NCBI GenBank assembly: GCA_041664925.1
Contig: JBAYJV010000001.1
Location: 293,262-357,261, forward strand
Direction of reading: 5' to 3'
DNA: 64,000 bases
Origin: Minisyncoccota bacterium
Lineage (GTDB): Bacteria > Patescibacteriota > Minisyncoccia > JBAYJV01
Both the position numbers and the translations under genes were made by a program. This document shows, in pieces, positions 8,511 to 29,523 of this stretch; the stretch's first letter is position 1, and the number at the start of each line of letters is the position of its first letter. The notes under the pieces are model-generated. The model did not search any database. It had not been told where the DNA came from and saw only the letters and a program-made list of their open reading frames with translations.

Positions 8511-9875
8511 TTGTTTATAATAAATACCGTGCAGAAAAATATTAAAACAGATGTTGCTATTATCGGAGCCGGCCCAGCCGGTCTTTTTGCGGCTCACGAA
8601 TTAATCTCAAGTGGACTAAAAATAACCGTTATTGATAGAGGCAAAGCCCCATCTGAAAGAGACGGCGACAGAGATATTGTTTACGGTGTTGGCGGAGCTG
8701 GTACTTTCTCCGACGGCAAACTTAATTTAATTGCTGAAAAAATTGGCGGAGATTTGACGGTTACCGGAAGAAGCAAATCTTCTATTCAACAAATCATAGA
8801 AAAAGTTGATAAAATTTTTACCTTTTTTGGCGCGCCCCTAAACTACTCTGGAGAAAATCAAGAAAAACTTTTTGAGTTAAGACAAAGAGCAATGCAACAT
8901 GGCATAGAACTTGTCGCTGCCAAACAAAGACACATAGGAACAACTCATGTTCGAAAAGTAATCGAAAATTTTTATAAATATCTCTTAGATAATGGTGTTG
9001 TCTTCTCTCTGGGAAATCATATTAAACACATTGCTAAGATAAAAAGTGGTTTTGTTTTAGAGGGAAAAAACAATATTCAAGCAAAGTACCTAATCATTGC
9101 TCCTGGCCGAGCCCAGTCTCATTGGTTGAGACCAGAAATGCAAAAACTTGACATTTCTCCTCAGTACGGACCGATTGATATTGGAGTAAGAGTAGAAATT
9201 CCCTATGAGATTTACGAACCAATCGGTAAATTAATGTATGATGCGAAACTTCGAATTGTTTCTTCTACTGATAATCTTGTGAGAACATTTTGCACCAACC
9301 CAAAAGGATTCGTTGCCCGAGAAGATCATGGTGATTTTTTTCTGGTCAACGGTCACGCAGATTCCGAAAGAAAAACTGAATTAACTAATTTCGCGCTATT
9401 GTGCAGAGAGCCACTAACTTGGCCATTATCTGACACAGCACATTACGGAAGGCTTAAGGCGATGGATTGCAATAATCTGGGCGGAGGGAAGCCTATCGCT
9501 CAGCGCCTTATTGATCTTGAAAGTGGACATCGATCAACGCCAGAAAGAATAGGAAAGCTTATGTTTGAACCGACCCTCAAAGACATTACTCCTGGAGACA
9601 TAGGGCTGGGATTGCCTTACAAAACCGTTCGCAATCTCCTTGAGGGCATTGAAAGACTAGATAAAATTATGCCAGGATTACGAAGTCCCCATACGTTGCT
9701 TTATGCTCCAGAAATTAAGTTTTATAGCGATCGTTATCCAATAGGTAAATATATGAATACAAGCATCCCGGGATTATTTATTGCTGGTGATGGATCGGGT
9801 CATTGTGAGGGTATTCCACAGTCTGCTGCCTCCGGGATTATTGCCGCTCAGGGAATTATAGCTAGTGAAAAATAG
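8511..9875 (+). CDS. FAD-dependent oxidoreductase (COG2509-type uncharacterised FAD dehydrogenase)
   Basis: Rossmann dinucleotide motif VAIIGAGPAGLFAAHEL, second GG motif near C-terminus (FIAGDGSGH). Confidence 0.6.
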   Translation: MFIINTVQKNIKTDVAIIGAGPAGLFAAHELISSGLKITVIDRGKAPSERDGDRDIVYGVGGAGTFSDGKLNLIAEKIGGDLTVTGRSKSSIQQIIEKVDKIFTFFGAPLNYSGENQEKLFELRQRAMQHGIELVAAKQRHIGTTHVRKVIENFYKYLLDNGVVFSLGNHIKHIAKIKSGFVLEGKNNIQAKYLIIAPGRAQSHWLRPEMQKLDISPQYGPIDIGVRVEIPYEIYEPIGKLMYDAKLRIVSSTDNLVRTFCTNPKGFVAREDHGDFFLVNGHADSERKTELTNFALLCREPLTWPLSDTAHYGRLKAMDCNNLGGGKPIAQRLIDLESGHRSTPERIGKLMFEPTLKDITPGDIGLGLPYKTVRNLLEGIERLDKIMPGLRSPHTLLYAPEIKFYSDRYPIGKYMNTSIPGLFIAGDGSGHCEGIPQSAASGIIAAQGIIASEK

Positions 9876-16882: not shown

Positions 16883-17278
16883 AAACGATTTATTCTCATT
16901 AACCTTTAAATGCCCATTCTCTAAGTAAAGAGAATGATGATATCCGCAAGAACAAATCATCGAGTCTATTGGCATGTGAGTTAGCTCATATTCGTCTATT
17001 GGATGAATATATCCGCAAGAACATACTATTCCCCATTCCCAGAGTATTTGGCGATAACCAGCGTCAATGGCTGTATGTCGATTTGTCTTTGTTAAAACAA
17101 ATTCTTTTGACTGATGTACAATACCATCTTTAACAATGCTTTCTGGCAAAATACTAAGTGGGTTTTTGTGTTCTATTTGAGGTGCCTTTTCGCCAAGAAA
17201 AGCAATGCTCAAAAATAATCCCATAAGCATTACAATTAAGACAGATGGCCAGATCCAATCTTTTTTGGATGTTTTCAT
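16880..17278 (-). CDS. secreted/membrane-anchored hypothetical protein with duplicated CSCGY(I/H)H motif
   Basis: N-terminal signal anchor; two CSCGY repeats plus His residues suggest metal binding. Confidence 0.4.
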   Translation of the reverse strand: MKTSKKDWIWPSVLIVMLMGLFLSIAFLGEKAPQIEHKNPLSILPESIVKDGIVHQSKEFVLTKTNRHTAIDAGYRQILWEWGIVCSCGYIHPIDEYELTHMPIDSMICSCGYHHSLYLENGHLKVNENKSF

Positions 17279-17375
17279 TTTTTCTCCCTTTTCTTTTTAC
17301 GCCTTGTTTGTCTGCCTTGCGACAATATTGGGTGTTTTTTTACCTCCTTTTTTAAAGAACTAGGCAAATAAAAAA

Positions 17376-17402
17376 ACTAGCCCCTTGATTTGGGGCTAGT
17401 TA
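17376..17402 (-). terminator. terminator downstream of tyrS (CTAGCCCC-ttgattt-GGGGCTAG)
   Basis: perfect 8-bp stem with flanking A/T runs. Confidence 0.5.
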
Positions 17403-17603
17403 TGTTTATTAGAATTAATTACTGCTATATTTTACCAAACACAAACTTCCCAGACCAAGGTCGGCTAATTAATAAGTAGTAATAGGCAAAAATGCTTTTT
17501 AAATTGTCTAGAAAGTTATTCATTACGATTTATATTATTACCAAAGAGGCGCTTTGTCAAACTTAATTTGTTTTTATTCGTCAACAATTCGCGGTTATTA
17601 GCA

Positions 17604-18779
17604 TTAAACTACCTTTACAAAAAACCTCTTCCCTTTACGAATTATGGCAGGGCAATCAGCTTTCTTTATTCTCATCATTGGATCATCAATAATCTGATCA
17701 TTAACCTTAATGCCTCCTTGTTCCACTAATCTGCGCGCTTCTGTGCGAGAAGGGGCAAGTTTAGTTTTTACGAGTAAATCAATAATAAAATCGTCTTTTT
17801 CAAGCTTATAGGTTCCGATTTCATCGGGAATTTCCTTTTTTTGAAAAACTGATTTAAAATATTCTTCGGCTTTACTAGCTTCGCTTTCCGAATAAAGCAT
17901 TTTGACTATTTCCCTGGCTAACTGCATTTTAACATCTCTGGGATTTCTTACCTGAGAAACCATTTCCGTTTTCATCGTCAGCAAGTCATCATACTTAATA
18001 TCAGTTAAAAGTCCAAAATAGGTGAGAATATTTTTGTCTGGCATCGACATAATCTTACCGTAGATTTCCTCTGGCGCCTCATCTATTGCAATAATATTTC
18101 CTAAAGATTGACTCATTTTTTCTTCACCATCAATTCCAGGAAGAATTGGCATCAATACAAGAGCTTGGGGAACCTGACCAGCTTCCTTTTGAAGTTCGCG
18201 AGCTAAAAGTTCGTTAAATTTTTGATCTGAGCCAATAACGGTTAAGTCTGAATCAAGCTCAACCGAATCTTGGGCCTGAAGAATTGGATATAAGAATTCA
18301 TGGGTCCAGACCGGCTTGCCTTGTTTCGTGCGTTTTTCAAACATGTCGCGTTCCCAAAGACGAGTAGCGCTCACTTTTTTAGCAATCTTAAGAAAATCAT
18401 CTAGATTGGTTTTGTCCCACCATTCGCTGTTATAACGAATTTCTAGCCTATCTTTATTTAAAATCTTTGTAACCAGACCCACCATTGCTTCAGCATTTTT
18501 ACGAAGCACTTCTTTCGACTGTCCTTGGCGGGCTTCAAGTTTGTCAGTTGGATCACCAATGCGGCCAGTAAAATCACCCAAAAGAAAGATCACTGTGTGT
18601 CCTGCGTCCTGAAAACGCCTCATAACACGATAATTAACGACATAACCTAAGTGAATCTTTGTGGTTGTTGGATCAGCTCCATGTTTTACGCGAAGTTTTT
18701 TGCCAGACTTTATCTTTTTTTCAAGTTCTGCCTGACCAATCACCTCAGTAGAGCCCCTAATTATATCATCAAGGTTCAT
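17604..18779 (-). CDS. tyrS: tyrosyl-tRNA synthetase
   Basis: class I HIGH-like KIHLGY, GDFTGRIGDP, KMSQS (KMSKS) loop, C-terminal S4 RNA-binding domain. Confidence 0.85.
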   Translation of the reverse strand: MNLDDIIRGSTEVIGQAELEKKIKSGKKLRVKHGADPTTTKIHLGYVVNYRVMRRFQDAGHTVIFLLGDFTGRIGDPTDKLEARQGQSKEVLRKNAEAMVGLVTKILNKDRLEIRYNSEWWDKTNLDDFLKIAKKVSATRLWERDMFEKRTKQGKPVWTHEFLYPILQAQDSVELDSDLTVIGSDQKFNELLARELQKEAGQVPQALVLMPILPGIDGEEKMSQSLGNIIAIDEAPEEIYGKIMSMPDKNILTYFGLLTDIKYDDLLTMKTEMVSQVRNPRDVKMQLAREIVKMLYSESEASKAEEYFKSVFQKKEIPDEIGTYKLEKDDFIIDLLVKTKLAPSRTEARRLVEQGGIKVNDQIIDDPMMRIKKADCPAIIRKGKRFFVKVV

Positions 18780-18850
18780 ATTTTTATAACTAAAATGATT
18801 ACATTTTTAGTTTAAGACAAAAAAATCACTAAGTAAAGGATAAAGAATTG

Positions 18851-18989
18851 TTATCCCCATCCCAAAACTTATCCCCAGTCATCCACACCTTTAAAAAGAT
18901 GTTGTTTTCATCGTGTTTGTTCGGTTAATTTATTGTCTATTATTCATATTTTATGGGGATTTTCTTAAAAACACCCTAAGTTATCCACA
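18851..18989 (+). promoter_or_regulatory. cluster of four same-orientation DnaA boxes (TTATCCCCA x2, TCATCCACA, perfect TTATCCACA) in tyrS-lexA divergent intergenic region
   Basis: boxes at 18851-18859, 18869-18877, 18879-18887, 18981-18989. Confidence 0.5.
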
Positions 18990-19104
18990 ATTGCTTTTCG
19001 GTTTTTGTTCGGTTAAAATTATTTGTGTTCGGCCTTCGTTGTCTTTTTTGACATAACTTCGGCCGACAAGTCGGCCTTTTAGCTGTTTTGATGTCTACTT
19101 TACT

Positions 19105-19722
19105 ATGCCAACAAAAAAATTTATTATTACAAGACGCCAAAAAGAGATTCTAGACTTTATCTTGGATTTCATGGATGAAAACGGTTACAGCCCAAGCCTA
19201 CGCGTTATTGGAAAGGCCATGGGGCTTTCGTCGCCTTCTTCTGTCCATGAACAAATAAAGAAGCTTCAGGAAGCTGGCTTTCTTGAAAGAGAAGATGATT
19301 CCAGATCATTTCTCCCATCAGGAAAAGCCTTAAATTTAACCGAGAAGTTTTCTGTGCCAGTTCTGGGAACTATTGCTGCCGGCTCACCAATTCAGGTCTT
19401 TGAATACCAAGAAAACTTGATGATTCCTAAAACATTAATTTCAAACGGCCACACTGATCTTTTCGCTCTTGAAGTTAAGGGAAATTCGATGATTGAAGAA
19501 GGTATTATGGATGGCGACTATGTTATTTGCGAACCGTCACAAAATGTTAAAAATGGCGATGTCGTAGTCGCTCTAGTTAATGGCACGGAAGTAACTTTAA
19601 AGAAATTCTATAAAGAGAAACGCTGGATTCGCCTTATGCCGGCAAATTCAAAAATGCGTCCTATTTTATCGCGAAATGTCTTGGTTCAAGGGGTTGTGAA
19701 AGCCGTGTTTAGAAAATACTAA
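19105..19722 (+). CDS. lexA: LexA repressor (S24 self-cleaving peptidase)
   Basis: N-terminal winged HTH (TRRQKEILDFI), Ala-Gly cleavage region, Ser (GNSM) / Lys (LKKF) dyad. Confidence 0.85.
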   Translation: MPTKKFIITRRQKEILDFILDFMDENGYSPSLRVIGKAMGLSSPSSVHEQIKKLQEAGFLEREDDSRSFLPSGKALNLTEKFSVPVLGTIAAGSPIQVFEYQENLMIPKTLISNGHTDLFALEVKGNSMIEEGIMDGDYVICEPSQNVKNGDVVVALVNGTEVTLKKFYKEKRWIRLMPANSKMRPILSRNVLVQGVVKAVFRKY

Positions 19723-19840
19723 ATTTTAATTTTCAACTATCAATCTTCAATTATCGACCAATTGTAGGATTGATTTTTTTAATTCAATTTTATCTAGATT
19801 TGTGCTAATCTATAAATAAGATTTTGTAAAATTACGAAAA

Positions 19841-21142
19841 ATGGCGAAAAAAAAGCAACCCAATTTATTCACTGAACCGCCTCAAGTTCTGTCGGTTTTT
19901 GATTATATTTCCCTTGTTAATTCTAATTTAGAAGTCCTTTCTGATATTGCTATAGAAGGCGAGGTTAGTGAGTTTAAGGTTTCTCAAGAAAAATGGGTAA
20001 CTTTCCGCCTCAAAGACGAAAAAGAAGAAGCTAGCATTGAATGTTTCACGGTTATTTTCAAATTAAATCAGCCTGTTGAGGATGGCATGAAAATAAGGGT
20101 TATTGGTCGTCCTCGTATCTATCCCCGCTATGGAAAATTTAGTATTAGTGTTGAAAATATTGAATTAACTGGCGAAGGATCGCTTAAGCGTGCCTTTGAA
20201 TTAACAAAACAAAAACTTCAAGTTGAAGGACTTTTCGACGAAGAAAGAAAGCGTCCCATCCCAGAATTTCCCAAGACAATCGGTCTGATCACTTCTCCAG
20301 ACGCTGCTGCTTACACAGATTTTCTTAAGGTTTTAAAACATCGTTTCGGTGGAATTAAGATTTATTTCTTCTCTGCTCGTGTTCAAGGAAAAGGCGCTGT
20401 CGAAGATATTGTCGAAGGCTTTGACTGGTTTAATCAAAATTATAAAAAGCTTGATATTCAGCTCGTTGTTTTAACTCGCGGCGGCGGAGCCTTGGAAGAT
20501 CTTCAGGCATTTAATTCTGAAGGTGTTGCTCGGGCTGTCTTTTCAAGTAAGATTCCCGTTGTCTGCGGCGTTGGTCATGAAAGAGATGAATCTCTTGTTG
20601 ATTTCGTTGCTGATCTTCGAGCGTCAACTCCTTCTAATGCCGCCGAATTAATCACCAGAGGAAGAGACGAGGTTGGCGCAGAAATAGAGGGAATTATTCA
20701 AAATATTGAATACTTATTAAAACATTCACTGGAAGAAAAACAGAGTTTTTTGAATCACTTTTTATCAAATTGTTCCCACTTTATCAGCGAAAAAACCTAC
20801 GAGACCAAGCAAATTCTTGTTACCTTTTTTCATCGGATTGAAACTATCGGCAGTGTTATTTTCCAAAAGAAACAAGAAATCGGTTTTATTTTAACAAATG
20901 TTGAAAAAAGCATTAAAAATCACCTAGGTACTTTTAATCGCACTGTTAGCCAACAAGAATCATTGTTAAAAAGTTATAATCCTTTAGGGGTTTTGAAGCG
21001 TGGCTATGGTATTGTTCGAAATAAAAATGGTAAAATTATAAAAAGTACCAAAGACATATTAATTGGAGACGACGTTGAAACGGTTATTCGCGACGGCAAC
21101 TTTATTTCTAAAGTTCAAACAATTAAACCAACTAATTCGTAA
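19841..21142 (+). CDS. xseA: exodeoxyribonuclease VII large subunit
   Basis: N-terminal OB-fold, central catalytic domain, 433 aa, followed by xseB. Confidence 0.85.
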   Translation: MAKKKQPNLFTEPPQVLSVFDYISLVNSNLEVLSDIAIEGEVSEFKVSQEKWVTFRLKDEKEEASIECFTVIFKLNQPVEDGMKIRVIGRPRIYPRYGKFSISVENIELTGEGSLKRAFELTKQKLQVEGLFDEERKRPIPEFPKTIGLITSPDAAAYTDFLKVLKHRFGGIKIYFFSARVQGKGAVEDIVEGFDWFNQNYKKLDIQLVVLTRGGGALEDLQAFNSEGVARAVFSSKIPVVCGVGHERDESLVDFVADLRASTPSNAAELITRGRDEVGAEIEGIIQNIEYLLKHSLEEKQSFLNHFLSNCSHFISEKTYETKQILVTFFHRIETIGSVIFQKKQEIGFILTNVEKSIKNHLGTFNRTVSQQESLLKSYNPLGVLKRGYGIVRNKNGKIIKSTKDILIGDDVETVIRDGNFISKVQTIKPTNS

Positions 21143-26125: not shown

Positions 26126-26157
26126 CTAACTTCCAACTTCTAGCTTCTAGCTTCTAA
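26118..26157. repeat. heptanucleotide tandem array (CTTCTAG/CTTCTAA/CTTCCAA, about 5 units) in 3' UTR of dciA-like gene
   Basis: period-7 repeats directly visible. Confidence 0.6.
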
Positions 26158-26462
26158 CGCGCCACCTTTACTTTTATTTCCTTAATTAAAGAACCAATCA
26201 ATACTCGGTTGGTTTTGTCTTTTATTTCATCCTGATAAAATCTCAGTTCTTGCGCCAGATAACTATTGGCACATTTAACATACAGTACCGATCCTCTGAA
26301 TTCAAACTTCATATCCTGATCTAAGACGCATTTCTCAAAACCTAACAACTTCTCAATAACTTTTCTTGCTTCCTTAAAAACTTCAATTCTTTCAAGTCCT
26401 CTTTTAAACCTCGGATCTTTTTTTACTTTATTAATAGCATAATTTATACTGCTGAAAGCCAT
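26154..26462 (-). CDS. DUF721-family protein (DciA-like candidate replicative-helicase operator/loader), adjacent to dnaN
   Basis: 102 aa, position immediately downstream of dnaA-dnaN, C-terminal pattern LYVKCANSYLAQEL...RVLIGSLIKEIKVKV resembling DUF721. Confidence 0.45.
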   Translation of the reverse strand: MAFSSINYAINKVKKDPRFKRGLERIEVFKEARKVIEKLLGFEKCVLDQDMKFEFRGSVLYVKCANSYLAQELRFYQDEIKDKTNRVLIGSLIKEIKVKVAR

Positions 26463-26463
26463 A

Positions 26464-27573
26464 TTATTCAGTATCGCGAACTGGCATAGCGATATAAGTA
26501 TACGAATTATCGGTTGCCGATTTCATTAATAATGGCCTTTCTTTGCCGTTTGCTCGTAAAATCACCTTATTTTTATCAGTATTATTAAGTCCGTCTATGA
26601 GATAGCGATAATTAAAGACTAGTTTTACATCTTCGCCCTTAACTTCCGCTTTAATGCTTGAATTATGTTCTCCTAATTCTTGAGATTTAGAAGATATTTC
26701 AATCAGTCCTTTATTAGAAAAAGAAAGATTAATGTCATTAACTTTTGTAACAAAAAAACTAGCAATCTTAATCGCTTCAATTAGTTTGTCTTTTTCAACC
26801 ACAACCTCTGTTTGGAATTCTTGAGGAATAATTCTTTCGTAATCGGGAAAATGACCTTCTATTAATCTTGATATCAGTTGAATGTCTTCAATGTCAAACA
26901 AAATCTGATTTTCTTTAATTGTAATTTTAATATCCTTATCAATATCACTTAAAATTCTTGTAAGTTCAATAATGGTTTTTAGTGGGATAATCAAGGATAT
27001 TTCTTGGTTTTGTTGAGGAAGAGCTTTTTTCATTACCTTTTCTGCTAAACGAAAACTATCAGTCGCTACTAATTTAAGATCGCCTTGTTGGGTGATTTTA
27101 AACAAGACACCAGAAATCTCTGGTCTAGTATCGGAAAAAGAAGCTGCTTGGTGAACTTGAGACAAAGCTTTGTGAAAATCTCTTGATTTAATAATAAAGA
27201 GTGGATTCTCTTCTATTTTGGGAATAATCGGAAAATCCTCAGCGCTCATTCCTTTAATATTTGCGTTGAAATTATTGCATTTAACCATTAGGTCGTGCTT
27301 TTCCGATTCGAGACTGACTTTGTCTTGAGGAAGAGAAGAAACAAAATTACTCAAAACCCCGACTGGAACAGTAATTTTTCCATCTTCATCAACCTTTGCT
27401 GATACCCAAGTAGTTAATCCGATCTCAAGATCAGTCGCCGAAACCTTGAGTCTGCCTTTATCTGTTTCAATTAAAATATTACTCAAAATAGGCAGGTTGA
27501 TATTTTTTCCAGTAACTCGTTCAACGATACTAATGGCTTTTTTTAATTTTTCTTGAAGACAAATAATTTTCAT
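26464..27573 (-). CDS. dnaN: DNA polymerase III beta sliding clamp
   Basis: 369 aa three-domain clamp pattern, position after dnaA. Confidence 0.9.
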   Translation of the reverse strand: MKIICLQEKLKKAISIVERVTGKNINLPILSNILIETDKGRLKVSATDLEIGLTTWVSAKVDEDGKITVPVGVLSNFVSSLPQDKVSLESEKHDLMVKCNNFNANIKGMSAEDFPIIPKIEENPLFIIKSRDFHKALSQVHQAASFSDTRPEISGVLFKITQQGDLKLVATDSFRLAEKVMKKALPQQNQEISLIIPLKTIIELTRILSDIDKDIKITIKENQILFDIEDIQLISRLIEGHFPDYERIIPQEFQTEVVVEKDKLIEAIKIASFFVTKVNDINLSFSNKGLIEISSKSQELGEHNSSIKAEVKGEDVKLVFNYRYLIDGLNNTDKNKVILRANGKERPLLMKSATDNSYTYIAMPVRDTE

Positions 27574-27864
27574 AATTATTATTAATATTTTATATATTTA
27601 AAGAACTAATTATTACTAAGAATTTTTATTTTGGGGATAAGTTCTAGAAAATTGTTATTTGGCGCGGGTAAATCACTAAAGCTCATACGGATTATCTGTG
27701 AATATCTCGGGATTTTTTCTCTAAACACGAGGATAAGTTTTTCAATTTTAATTTTCTGAAAAATATATCCATCGAATTGTACGCGTGATTAACCAATGGT
27801 TATCCTCAGCTTTTCCCCAGAAATTAGTAAGTCTATAAAACTTCTTTGACAGAAAAAGCAAACC
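27574..27864. promoter_or_regulatory. candidate oriC: AT-rich unwinding stretch plus DnaA-box-like 9-mers in dnaA-dnaN intergenic region
   Basis: one-mismatch boxes TGGGGATAA (27632-27640), TTATCCTCA (27800-27808), plus weaker ones; AT-rich tract 27574-27640. Confidence 0.55.
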
Positions 27865-29232
27865 TTAGGTGTTGTAAAGTCGCTCCTTTATTAGGTTTAA
27901 CTCCATTACGAGACCTTCATCTAATTGGCGATTGTGTTCGACTTTATCGCAAGCATGTATAACTGTCGTGTGATCGCGGCCACCGAGTTTTTTTCCGATA
28001 GAAGGATAAGATTCGTGAAGCTCTTCCCTGAGAAGATACATCGATATCTGACGCGGTTTGACTAATTCTTTTTTTCGGCCTCCCTCAATAATGTCTTCTA
28101 GAGGTATTTCATAAAACTCCGCAACTGTCTCTAATATCTTTGAAGAAGAAACACGCTTGGGTGGTCTCACAATTAAATTTTTCAAAAGCTCTTTAGCTTT
28201 TTCTAAATCAGGAATACTGTTATTAGATTTATAGTAAGCATGAATTTTATTTAAAGAACCTTCAAGTTCGCGAACGTTTTTTTGAACTTTACTGGCAATA
28301 AAATGAATAATATCGTCAGAAAGATTGTATTCTAAGGTTTCAAGTTTAGATTTAAGAATAGCAATGCGGGATTCGAAATCTGGATAAGAAATATCAACCG
28401 TCATACCTCCCTCAAAACGGGAACAGAGGCGTTCTTCTAGGGTAGGAATTGCCTTAGGCGGGCGATCAGAGCTGATAATAATTTGCTTATTGGCTTCATA
28501 TAAAGCATTAAAAGTGTGGAAAAATTCAATCTGGGTTTTCTCCTTTCCGGCCAAGAATTGAATATCGTCAATAATCAAAACATCAATCTTGCGATATTTC
28601 TTTTTAAAATCTTCCATTCTTTGGGTGCGGATAGCGTCAATTAACTCACTCGTAAAAGCTTCGGAAGAAATATATTTAACCTTAATTTGTCCGGGATACT
28701 GTTTAACTAATTCGTTGCCGATTGCCTGTAAGAGATGAGTTTTTCCTAAACCAACACCGCCATAAATAAAAAAGGGATTATATTCCCTTCCAATGTTTTC
28801 TGGTTTTACCAAAGAGAGAGCAGCAGCGTGAGCAAGTTCATTGAACGAACCGACAATAAAAGTCGAAAAATCGTATTTAGGATTTAAATTGGTTTCCTCA
28901 TCGATGATTCGATTATTAAGCAATCCCAACTGAGGTTCTTGAGCTGATTCTTCAGGGCGACGATTAATAATAACATCAACAACTCTTCTGGAAGCAACAA
29001 TATATTCCAATTTCTTTACTTCGGGAGAAACATTGCGCAAAGCGCGCAGGATTAAAGTGTTACATCTATTTTCAAGCCACTCGCGAGTGAACTGATTGGG
29101 AACTTCAAGTGTACAAATACCTTCATTTCTGGAAACAAGTCGAGCGTTTTTAATCCAAGTAACAAAATTGGCCTTAGAAACAGATAATTCTATTTCACCG
29201 ACAGCAGCTTGCCAAAGTTCTTCAATGTTCAT
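27865..29232 (-). CDS. dnaA: chromosomal replication initiator DnaA
   Basis: AAA+ Walker A GGVGLGKTHLL, Walker B LIIDDIQF, C-terminal DNA-binding domain. Confidence 0.95.
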   Translation of the reverse strand: MNIEELWQAAVGEIELSVSKANFVTWIKNARLVSRNEGICTLEVPNQFTREWLENRCNTLILRALRNVSPEVKKLEYIVASRRVVDVIINRRPEESAQEPQLGLLNNRIIDEETNLNPKYDFSTFIVGSFNELAHAAALSLVKPENIGREYNPFFIYGGVGLGKTHLLQAIGNELVKQYPGQIKVKYISSEAFTSELIDAIRTQRMEDFKKKYRKIDVLIIDDIQFLAGKEKTQIEFFHTFNALYEANKQIIISSDRPPKAIPTLEERLCSRFEGGMTVDISYPDFESRIAILKSKLETLEYNLSDDIIHFIASKVQKNVRELEGSLNKIHAYYKSNNSIPDLEKAKELLKNLIVRPPKRVSSSKILETVAEFYEIPLEDIIEGGRKKELVKPRQISMYLLREELHESYPSIGKKLGGRDHTTVIHACDKVEHNRQLDEGLVMELNLIKERLYNT

Positions 29233-29523
29233 AAACGAAGGATAACATCTTTAAGGTTATTTTAGCACGGAATCTTTAAATGCAATCTTTATCAACAAAT
29301 GCGTGAATAATGCTGTTTTAGGGGATTAACCTGCATTTTTTGTTGATAACCTGTGTAAAACTCCTTAATAACATCATTATTCTATATCTAACCCACCTCC
29401 AATTGCAATAGATACGCAAAATCAGAAATTCTTACCTAATCTAAAAAACACTTGAGTGTTTTGGGTGGTGACATCAAAACTAAAATGATAAAATAAGAAC
29501 ATGCTTAATTAATAATTTTTAAA
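29233..29523. promoter_or_regulatory. dnaA upstream region with two inverted one-mismatch DnaA boxes (TTATCAACA)
   Basis: 29289-29297 TTATCAACA and 29341-29349 TGTTGATAA. Confidence 0.45.

Follow-up and report, generated by a model that had tools for sequence, protein, structure and literature searches.

The question raised by this locus is why a cluster of DnaA boxes should lie in the spacer between the divergent genes tyrS and lexA, in a stretch of 64,000 nucleotides (hereafter the window; ~35% GC) from a metagenome-assembled genome of the Paceibacterota (Patescibacteria, or Candidate Phyla Radiation, CPR). The LexA protein encoded there is identical to one named LexA of Candidatus Paceibacterota bacterium. 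Taking as a DnaA box any 9-mer with at most one mismatch to TTATCCACA, the spacer holds four of them, all on the plus strand between tyrS (minus strand) and lexA (plus strand), as the initial annotation had reported; the distance between the cluster and dnaA, which it had put at ~8.8 kb, was measured as 8,876 bp. The answer that we favour, with a probability of roughly 0.7, is that the spacer carries a DnaA-responsive lexA promoter, in which the four 9-mers would be DnaA sites and DnaA would co-regulate lexA together with LexA. The boxes and the two genes that flank them are the following.

18851-18859, plus strand: D1, distal DnaA box TTATCCCCA, one mismatch; TTTTCCCCA or TTTTCCACA in relatives.
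18869-18877, plus strand: D2, distal DnaA box TTATCCCCA, followed by a conserved G.
18879-18887, plus strand: D3, distal DnaA box TCATCCACA, 1 nt after D2; nnATCCACA in relatives.
18981-18989, plus strand: P, proximal perfect DnaA box TTATCCACA, ending 1 nt before the predicted -35 (about -45 to -37).
17604-18779, minus strand: tyrS, with Pfam domains tRNA-synt_1b and S4; divergent neighbour of lexA.
19105-19722, plus strand: lexA, with Pfam domains LexA_DNA_bind and Peptidase_S24; the gene to which the box module is attached.

The clustering of the four boxes is far beyond chance. Counted over the whole window the boxes are not in excess (21 observed vs 17.2 ± 4.4 in shuffled sequences), and P is the only one that is perfect. 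Four boxes within 140 bp occurred in none of 3000 Markov-simulated windows (1000 each at orders 1, 3 and 5), where the maximum was three within that distance, reached in 0.5-0.8% of the simulations; three boxes on the same strand were seen in 0.2% of them at most. A census of the 26 intergenic regions measuring 60 bp or more found no box in 21 of them and two or more in only three, namely tyrS-lexA (four), dnaN-dnaA (two) and the region upstream of dnaA (two). No other intergenic region has a comparable box density.

Relatives of the locus were gathered by LexA scans of genome and metagenome collections and by look-ups of the encoding contigs, and a footprint was obtained from a MAFFT alignment of 11 orthologous spacers, whose LexA and TyrS proteins are 78-99% and 63-92% identical to those of the window, respectively. 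These relatives share the gene order murE-tyrS(-)-lexA(+)-xseA and the cluster is present in their tyrS-lexA spacers, the same elements being found in every spacer that could be read. D1 (TTwTCCcCA), D2 (TTATCCCCAG), D3 (nnATCCACA) and a TTTGTTCG motif are invariant or nearly so, as is the block TTATCCACArTT..TTTCGG.TT.TGTTCGG.TA.A.T....G.GTTCGG, whereas the rest of the spacer outside these footprints has diverged and contains insertions and deletions. The nearly invariant D2 reads TTATCCCCA in 9 of the 11 spacers and TTGTCCCCA in L003 and L029, the core TCCACA of D3 is kept in 10 of the 11, and P is invariant in the spacers of all 13 relatives.

The geometry of the module is conserved as well. 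The D1-D2 interval is 18-19 bp and the D2-D3 interval always 10 bp; from D3 to the TTTGTTCG site (S0) there are always 36-37 bp, and from S0 to P either 64-67 or 76-77 bp, two classes that lie about one helical turn apart. The distances from P to the predicted -35 (1 nt) and from the -35 to the -10 (17 nt) are fixed. The flanking distances vary, from 71 to 498 bp between tyrS and D1 and from 62 to 196 bp between P and the lexA ATG, and in some relatives small minus-strand open reading frames (ORFs), read by eye, are located between tyrS and D1. Considering that the spacing to the lexA promoter is fixed and the distance to tyrS variable, the module is attached to the lexA promoter and not to tyrS.

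The promoter itself was inferred from this conservation, its hexamers and transcription start being predictions, and it is accompanied by short repeats:

18916-18924, plus strand: S0, solitary TTTGTTCGG motif with the same core as the promoter repeats; candidate extra LexA half-site.
18991-18996, plus strand: predicted -35 hexamer TTGCTT, read from the sequence, at a conserved position.
18997-19012, plus strand: direct repeat TTCGG-N5-GTTCGG with an 11-bp period, which fills the promoter spacer; probable LexA operator.
19014-19019, plus strand: predicted -10 hexamer TAAAAT, at a conserved position 17 nt after the -35.
19026-19032, plus strand: third repeat TGTTCGG (GTTCGG at 19027-19032), at the predicted transcription start (about +1); probable LexA half-site.

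The 17-nt promoter spacer reads TTCGGTTTTTGTTCGGT in the window. Relatives carry TTGTTT, TTTACT or TTGTGT as -35 and TAGAAT, TACAAT or TATACT as -10, and among them TTCGG-N5-GTTCGG is nearly invariant; each fetched locus has a single copy of the exact pattern, always at a lexA promoter. All relatives keep the GTTCG of the third repeat 20 bp beyond the second, and in the case of S0, placed 65 bp upstream of P in the window, the GTTCG core is invariant and TTTGTTCG nearly so. Half-sites of fixed period that overlap the lexA promoter, are conserved and co-vary with LexA are what defines a direct-repeat operator, and the TTCGG repeats are probably the LexA autoregulatory operator.

A DnaA box at the lexA promoter is also found far outside the window's clade. 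Nine other lexA promoter lineages were compared (LexA 38-58% identical), among them Nomura-, Falkow-, Komeili- and Uhrbacteria by record name. Each has, no more than 90 nt from its predicted start, a box with one mismatch or none, and this box is perfect in 8 of the 9, against a background at the same loci of 0.038 perfect and 0.44 one-mismatch boxes per kb. It is located at about -53 to -41 or at +14 to +24, in either orientation, and in gene neighbourhoods that differ from that of the window, without tyrS nearby and with left neighbours such as nrdA or an RNase T-family gene. The lineages that were fetched one by one are arranged as follows.

L081, LexA 57% identical: TGTGGATAA-N8-TTGTAT-gttcggttttgttcggt-TATAAT.
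L080, LexA 58% identical: TTATCCCCA 10 nt before the -35; lexA divergent from nrdA.
L082, LexA 51% identical: TTATCCACA-N7-TTGCAT-gttcgatttctgttcgt-TAGAAT.
L083 and L085, LexA 46-48% identical: box at about +14 to +22, after TTGTGT-N17-TATAAT.
L086 (Falkowbacteria), LexA 52% identical: TGTGGATAA-N5-TTGACA-ttcggtttttgttcggt-TATACT.
L087 (Komeilibacteria), LexA 46% identical: one box upstream and one at +16 to +24.
L088 (Uhrbacteria), LexA 48% identical: TGTGGATAA-N7-TTGCAT-gcGTTCtgtttttGTTC-TAAAAT.

A large distant group (LexA 38-42% identical; records named Nomurabacteria, Parcubacteria and similar) shows the arrangement TGTGGATAA-N7-8-TTGTTT-AGGTTATCTTTAGGTAG-TATACT shortly before the lexA ATG, the perfect box having the opposite orientation and standing a few nucleotides ahead of the -35; in some members TTGTCCACA or TTATCCCCA takes its place. 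In this group (L008, L010-L012, L015, L042-L063 and others) the repeat in the promoter spacer is TTTAGGT-N4-TTTAGGT, ~60 nt before the ATG, and LexA has a one-residue deletion together with substitutions before helix 3. The box thus stays TTATCCACA, TTATCCCCA or TTGTCCACA while its orientation and its distance to the repeats change. A 9-mer that keeps the DnaA consensus while orientation, distance and repeats change is what one would expect if LexA recognises the repeats and another, highly conserved protein the 9-mer. As an observation in its own right, the TTTAGGT lineage looks like a joint change of operator and repressor.

The gene neighbourhoods of these distant promoters include further genes worth recording. 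In L080 (1042-4037) lexA is divergent from nrdAB, encoding ribonucleotide reductase, and in L081, L083 and L085 a small conserved ORF and a dinB-type (IMS) polymerase gene come after it. In the Falkowbacteria contig (L086, 1608-2606) lexA stands directly downstream of a bAvd/23S-rRNA-IVP-like gene, and the promoter with DnaA box and LexA operator is upstream of this bAvd-like gene, which suggests a two-gene operon.

The protein that would read the 9-mers is encoded in the window, next to the gene for DnaN:

27865-29232, minus strand: dnaA (Pfam); presumed trans-acting factor.
26464-27573, minus strand: dnaN (Pfam).

The motifs PRQ, P-IG and GGRDHTTV-HA of DnaA domain IV hold its base-contacting residues, and in the window's DnaA they align with those of the E. 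coli protein in complex with a DnaA box (1J1V) and of the 8BTG DnaA chains. The dnaN-dnaA spacer (27574-27864) was compared with its counterparts in two relatives (L089 3363-3652 and L090 3378-3653). A box pair TTATCCTCA-N2-TTTTCCCCA (27800-27819, plus strand) is conserved in all three, as is TTwTCCCCA (TTATCCCCA in the window, 27632-27640, minus strand), which has an AT-rich tract after it; elsewhere the spacer has diverged, and the region is probably oriC. Upstream of dnaA, an adjacent pair TTTTACACA-N2-TTATCAACA (29341-29360, minus strand) is conserved in both relatives, with TTATCCACA as the second box in L090, giving the consensus TTTTACACA-N2-TTATCmACA. An inverted TGTTGATAA (29289-29297) and two promoter-like elements (TTGCA...TATAGAAT and GTGCTAAAAT) are conserved there too, and these elements suggest autoregulation of dnaA. 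This clade therefore uses TTATCCCCA and TTTTCCCCA as variants of the box, which is of help when origins are predicted in CPR genomes.

With these elements a mechanism for the DnaA-responsive lexA promoter can be proposed. LexA would bind the spacer repeats and the repeat at about +1, repressing its own predicted sigma-70-type promoter TTGCTT-N17-TAAAAT (18991-19019), and DnaA would bind the strong, presumably high-affinity box P that abuts the -35 (about -45 to -37). The packed trio of weaker boxes in the same orientation lies ~100 bp further upstream, and since its spacing changes only by about one helical turn, such phase conservation suggests cooperation with the proximal box. The weak trio might be filled cooperatively only at high DnaA-ATP and communicate with P, for instance by looping. 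Transcription of lexA would then respond both to DNA damage, sensed by LexA self-cleavage, and to the state of the initiator, conveyed by the amount or the ATP form of DnaA.

As to the sign of the effect, DnaA boxes beside the -35 repress in E. coli mioC, dnaA and uvrB, and a box at about +14 to +24 occupies a position that is normally repressive only. We lean to repression, at roughly 55:45 within the favoured hypothesis, because some lineages carry the box at +14 to +24 and because the E. coli precedents repress. One possible course of events is that DnaA-ATP accumulating during a replication block would hold back LexA resynthesis until replication resumes.

A broader reading, for which we see even odds, is that across a large part of the Patescibacteria DnaA would directly co-regulate lexA, gating entry into or exit from the SOS response by initiation or replication status. 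It comprises, at those same odds, a single promoter design, with a LexA direct repeat in the spacer and a DnaA box that adjoins the promoter or closely follows it, and a four-box phase-locked module in the window's clade that could sense DnaA-ATP cooperatively.

Several observations have to be set against DnaA control of lexA. The nine other lineages share ancestry, so that the recurrence of the box reflects conservation and not independent origin, and binomial probabilities make the lineages look more independent than they are. Other lexA promoters (L030, L032, L033, L036, L037, L040 and L072) have no box within 600 bp, several promoters of this kind showing a similar repeat-in-spacer layout when read by eye, and the box is absent from the lineage-B locus L045, from Firmicutes-type loci with Cheo boxes and from proteobacterial loci. 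The distal trio is limited to the window's clade, and in several of its members it is found 67-104 bp upstream of the leftward gene (tyrS, or a small ORF read by eye). The upstream positions of the box (-53 to -37) fit activation as well as repression. A generic promoter scan made no call at the lexA promoter, the -35 of which matches TTGACA in 3 of 6 positions. Lastly, neither the 64 kb window, whose other matches are coding-region or chance ones, nor the fetched flanks yielded another promoter-associated operator of the TTCGG type, and the uvrB upstream region has no copy, in a search that covered small parts of the genomes; in view of the lack of a further operator in the window, the assignment of the repeats to LexA is one from position, conservation and co-variation only.

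Among the alternatives, the one that survives best, though we consider it unlikely, is that the cluster titrates or inactivates DnaA and thereby controls initiation at oriC, its position at lexA being incidental. The DnaA-box clusters of B. subtilis and the datA locus of E. coli are intergenic clusters of same-type boxes outside oriC and fairly near it. Loci of this class hold many boxes and act mainly on DnaA availability or on initiation, and datA is marked in addition by an IHF site and by DnaA-ATP hydrolysis. The tyrS-lexA cluster resembles them in being intergenic, made of same-type boxes and fairly close to the origin: dnaA and the probable oriC are only 8.9 kb away from its four boxes of one orientation, these form the densest box cluster in the window, and the trio is packed like an oligomerisation array. 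However, it is much smaller, with four boxes only, and it is locked to the lexA promoter in a register fixed to the nucleotide. In other lineages a single box is kept at the lexA promoter in unrelated neighbourhoods, where it would be useless for titration, so that the unit conserved across lineages is one promoter-placed box. The initial annotation had offered a Bacillus-type titration cluster or DnaA-dependent transcriptional control, the latter of the SOS regulon or of tyrS, as possible roles; the first is possible for the distal trio and disfavoured as an account of the locus, and control linked to the SOS response is the role that gains from the fixed promoter register in the 11 spacers and from the box in nine lineages. 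Titration and transcriptional control are, moreover, mutually compatible.

We regard as quite unlikely that the distal trio, or the whole cluster, serves the leftward gene (tyrS here) or both divergent promoters. In the window 71 bp separate D1 from the start of tyrS, and the trio is ~70 bp upstream of a small minus-strand ORF, read by eye, in L025 and L026, distances that would suit such a role. Yet the left gene and its distance (71-498 bp) differ among relatives, against a fixed spacing to the lexA promoter, the 11-spacer alignment has no conserved leftward -10 or -35 beside the trio, and the boxes of other lineages have wholly different left neighbours (nrdA, an RNase T-family gene and others). 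DnaA control of tyrS in particular finds no support, given this variable distance, the ORFs inserted in some relatives and the distant lineages without tyrS nearby.

Binding of the 9-mers by a protein other than DnaA, or their being part of an extended LexA operator, is in our view decidedly unlikely. The C at position 7 of TTATCCCCA departs from the classical consensus, and the boxes always accompany LexA-type repeats, both of which would fit another binder. Against it, 8 of the 9 other lineages have a perfect TTATCCACA whose orientation and distance vary, from upstream of the promoter to downstream of the -10, and the 9-mer is unchanged where the repeats change to TTTAGGT. The C7 variants are also conserved beside dnaA and at the probable oriC, and DnaA domain IV is canonical.

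A replication origin in the tyrS-lexA spacer, or one half of a bipartite oriC, is very improbable, even though a box cluster, divergent flanking genes and a nearby dnaA would be in agreement with it. The sequence between the boxes is unconserved, the 11-spacer alignment has no conserved AT-rich unwinding element adjoining them, and the box travels with lexA in other genomes; the dnaA-dnaN spacer, with its conserved boxes followed by the AT-rich tract, is the better candidate. GC skew in the 64 kb window tracks gene orientation and the coding strand, and is uninformative on the origin. Chance co-occurrence of the 9-mers in AT-rich intergenic DNA, which a window-wide count of 21 against ~17 might suggest, was rejected as next to impossible, since no simulation in 3000 placed four boxes in 140 bp and the boxes are conserved where the surrounding spacer has diverged.

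DnaA-regulated promoters and co-regulation by DnaA and LexA are already known, and a DnaA-responsive lexA promoter can be compared with them. In E. coli, DnaA and LexA jointly repress the uvrB, recN and dinJ promoters (Wurihan et al., 2018, PMC6015884; review PMC8203912). As in uvrB, the DnaA and LexA boxes here are interleaved at one promoter region, one consensus box is accompanied by weaker ones, and the role proposed is a coupling of the SOS response to replication status. Unlike in uvrB, the target would be lexA itself, the master repressor, and the LexA operator is a direct repeat in the promoter spacer and not a palindrome; much of the Patescibacteria shares the layout, for which the evidence is computational. 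DnaA is also a transcription factor at the dnaA, mioC, nrdAB and rpoH promoters of E. coli and in the B. subtilis replication-stress regulon of dnaA, sda, ywlC and yydA (PMC8203912). These promoters too have single or clustered boxes beside or within a sigma-70 promoter, with high and low affinities mixed, whereas the phase-conserved separation of ~100 bp between trio and proximal box is specific to the window's clade.

Concerning the operator, a direct-repeat LexA motif was reportedly attributed to Patescibacteria by Sanchez-Osuna and colleagues in 2017. In Alphaproteobacteria the LexA operator is the direct repeat GTTC-N7-GTTC (PMC8565304), and PMC7739468, which cites the 2017 study, names Patescibacteria as a further direct-repeat case. 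TTCGG-N5-GTTCGG has the same 11-bp period as the alphaproteobacterial operator and is likewise situated in the lexA promoter, and the Uhrbacteria promoter (L088) has GTTC-N7-GTTC exactly. Membership of the window repeats in the direct-repeat class is inferred from their position, conservation and co-variation only.

What is new is lexA itself as the target, how widely the arrangement occurs among Patescibacteria and, for the window's clade, the phase-locked version with four boxes. In the literature searched, DnaA was not reported to act on lexA in either E. coli or B. subtilis, and neither a DnaA box at the promoter of a lexA gene nor one in CPR bacteria came up in full-text searches; a prior mention, for example in a study of the SOS response of Patescibacteria, is possible. 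If true, direct control of lexA would put the initiator DnaA above the whole SOS regulon. The recurrence of a DnaA site at the lexA promoters of many distant relatives suggests that these small bacteria couple their DNA-damage response to replication status. That the box is kept in lineages whose LexA proteins are only ~40% identical points to long-standing selection for such a coupling in very small genomes with few regulators. The analysis also adds a candidate operator and promoter model for lexA in Patescibacteria.

Some minor features of the locus accompany these results. Downstream, the window lexA is followed by xseA and xseB (Pfam). The predicted lexA leader (19026-19110) folds modestly better than shuffled sequences (z = -2.3), with a hairpin that is unconserved beyond the closest relatives. 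It contains a GC-rich, terminator-like hairpin GGCCGACAAGTCGGCC (19061-19076), followed by TTTTAG and located 29 nt before the ATG, which is present in L002, degraded in L021 and L022 and absent in more distant relatives. A 47-aa ORF (18913-19056) was considered as a conserved small ORF or RNA and rejected, given that the changes in the S0-P interval are not multiples of three and that its sequence is unconserved.

On the tyrS side, a TAAGTAAAGGA/TAAGTAAAGAA motif (18820-18840 in the window) is conserved ~40-60 bp upstream of tyrS in the spacers of relatives; it stays with tyrS where the spacer is expanded and is possibly part of the tyrS promoter or leader. The spacers of L025/L079 (~9640-9830), L023 and L026 carry inserts of 200-450 bp between tyrS and the box trio, with short minus-strand ORFs that resemble small hydrophobic peptides and have a ribosome-binding site and a terminator hairpin. 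Neither a T-box nor any other riboswitch came up in an Rfam search of 17000-20000, and a Phe_leader match at 17276-17405 was taken as chance because it is sub-threshold (24 bits vs a gathering score of 55).

Next to the replication genes, a 102-aa ORF (26154-26462, minus strand) lies directly downstream of dnaN. The equivalent gene in L079, L089 and L090 has a weak Pfam match to DciA, and dnaA-dnaN-dciA may be one cluster.

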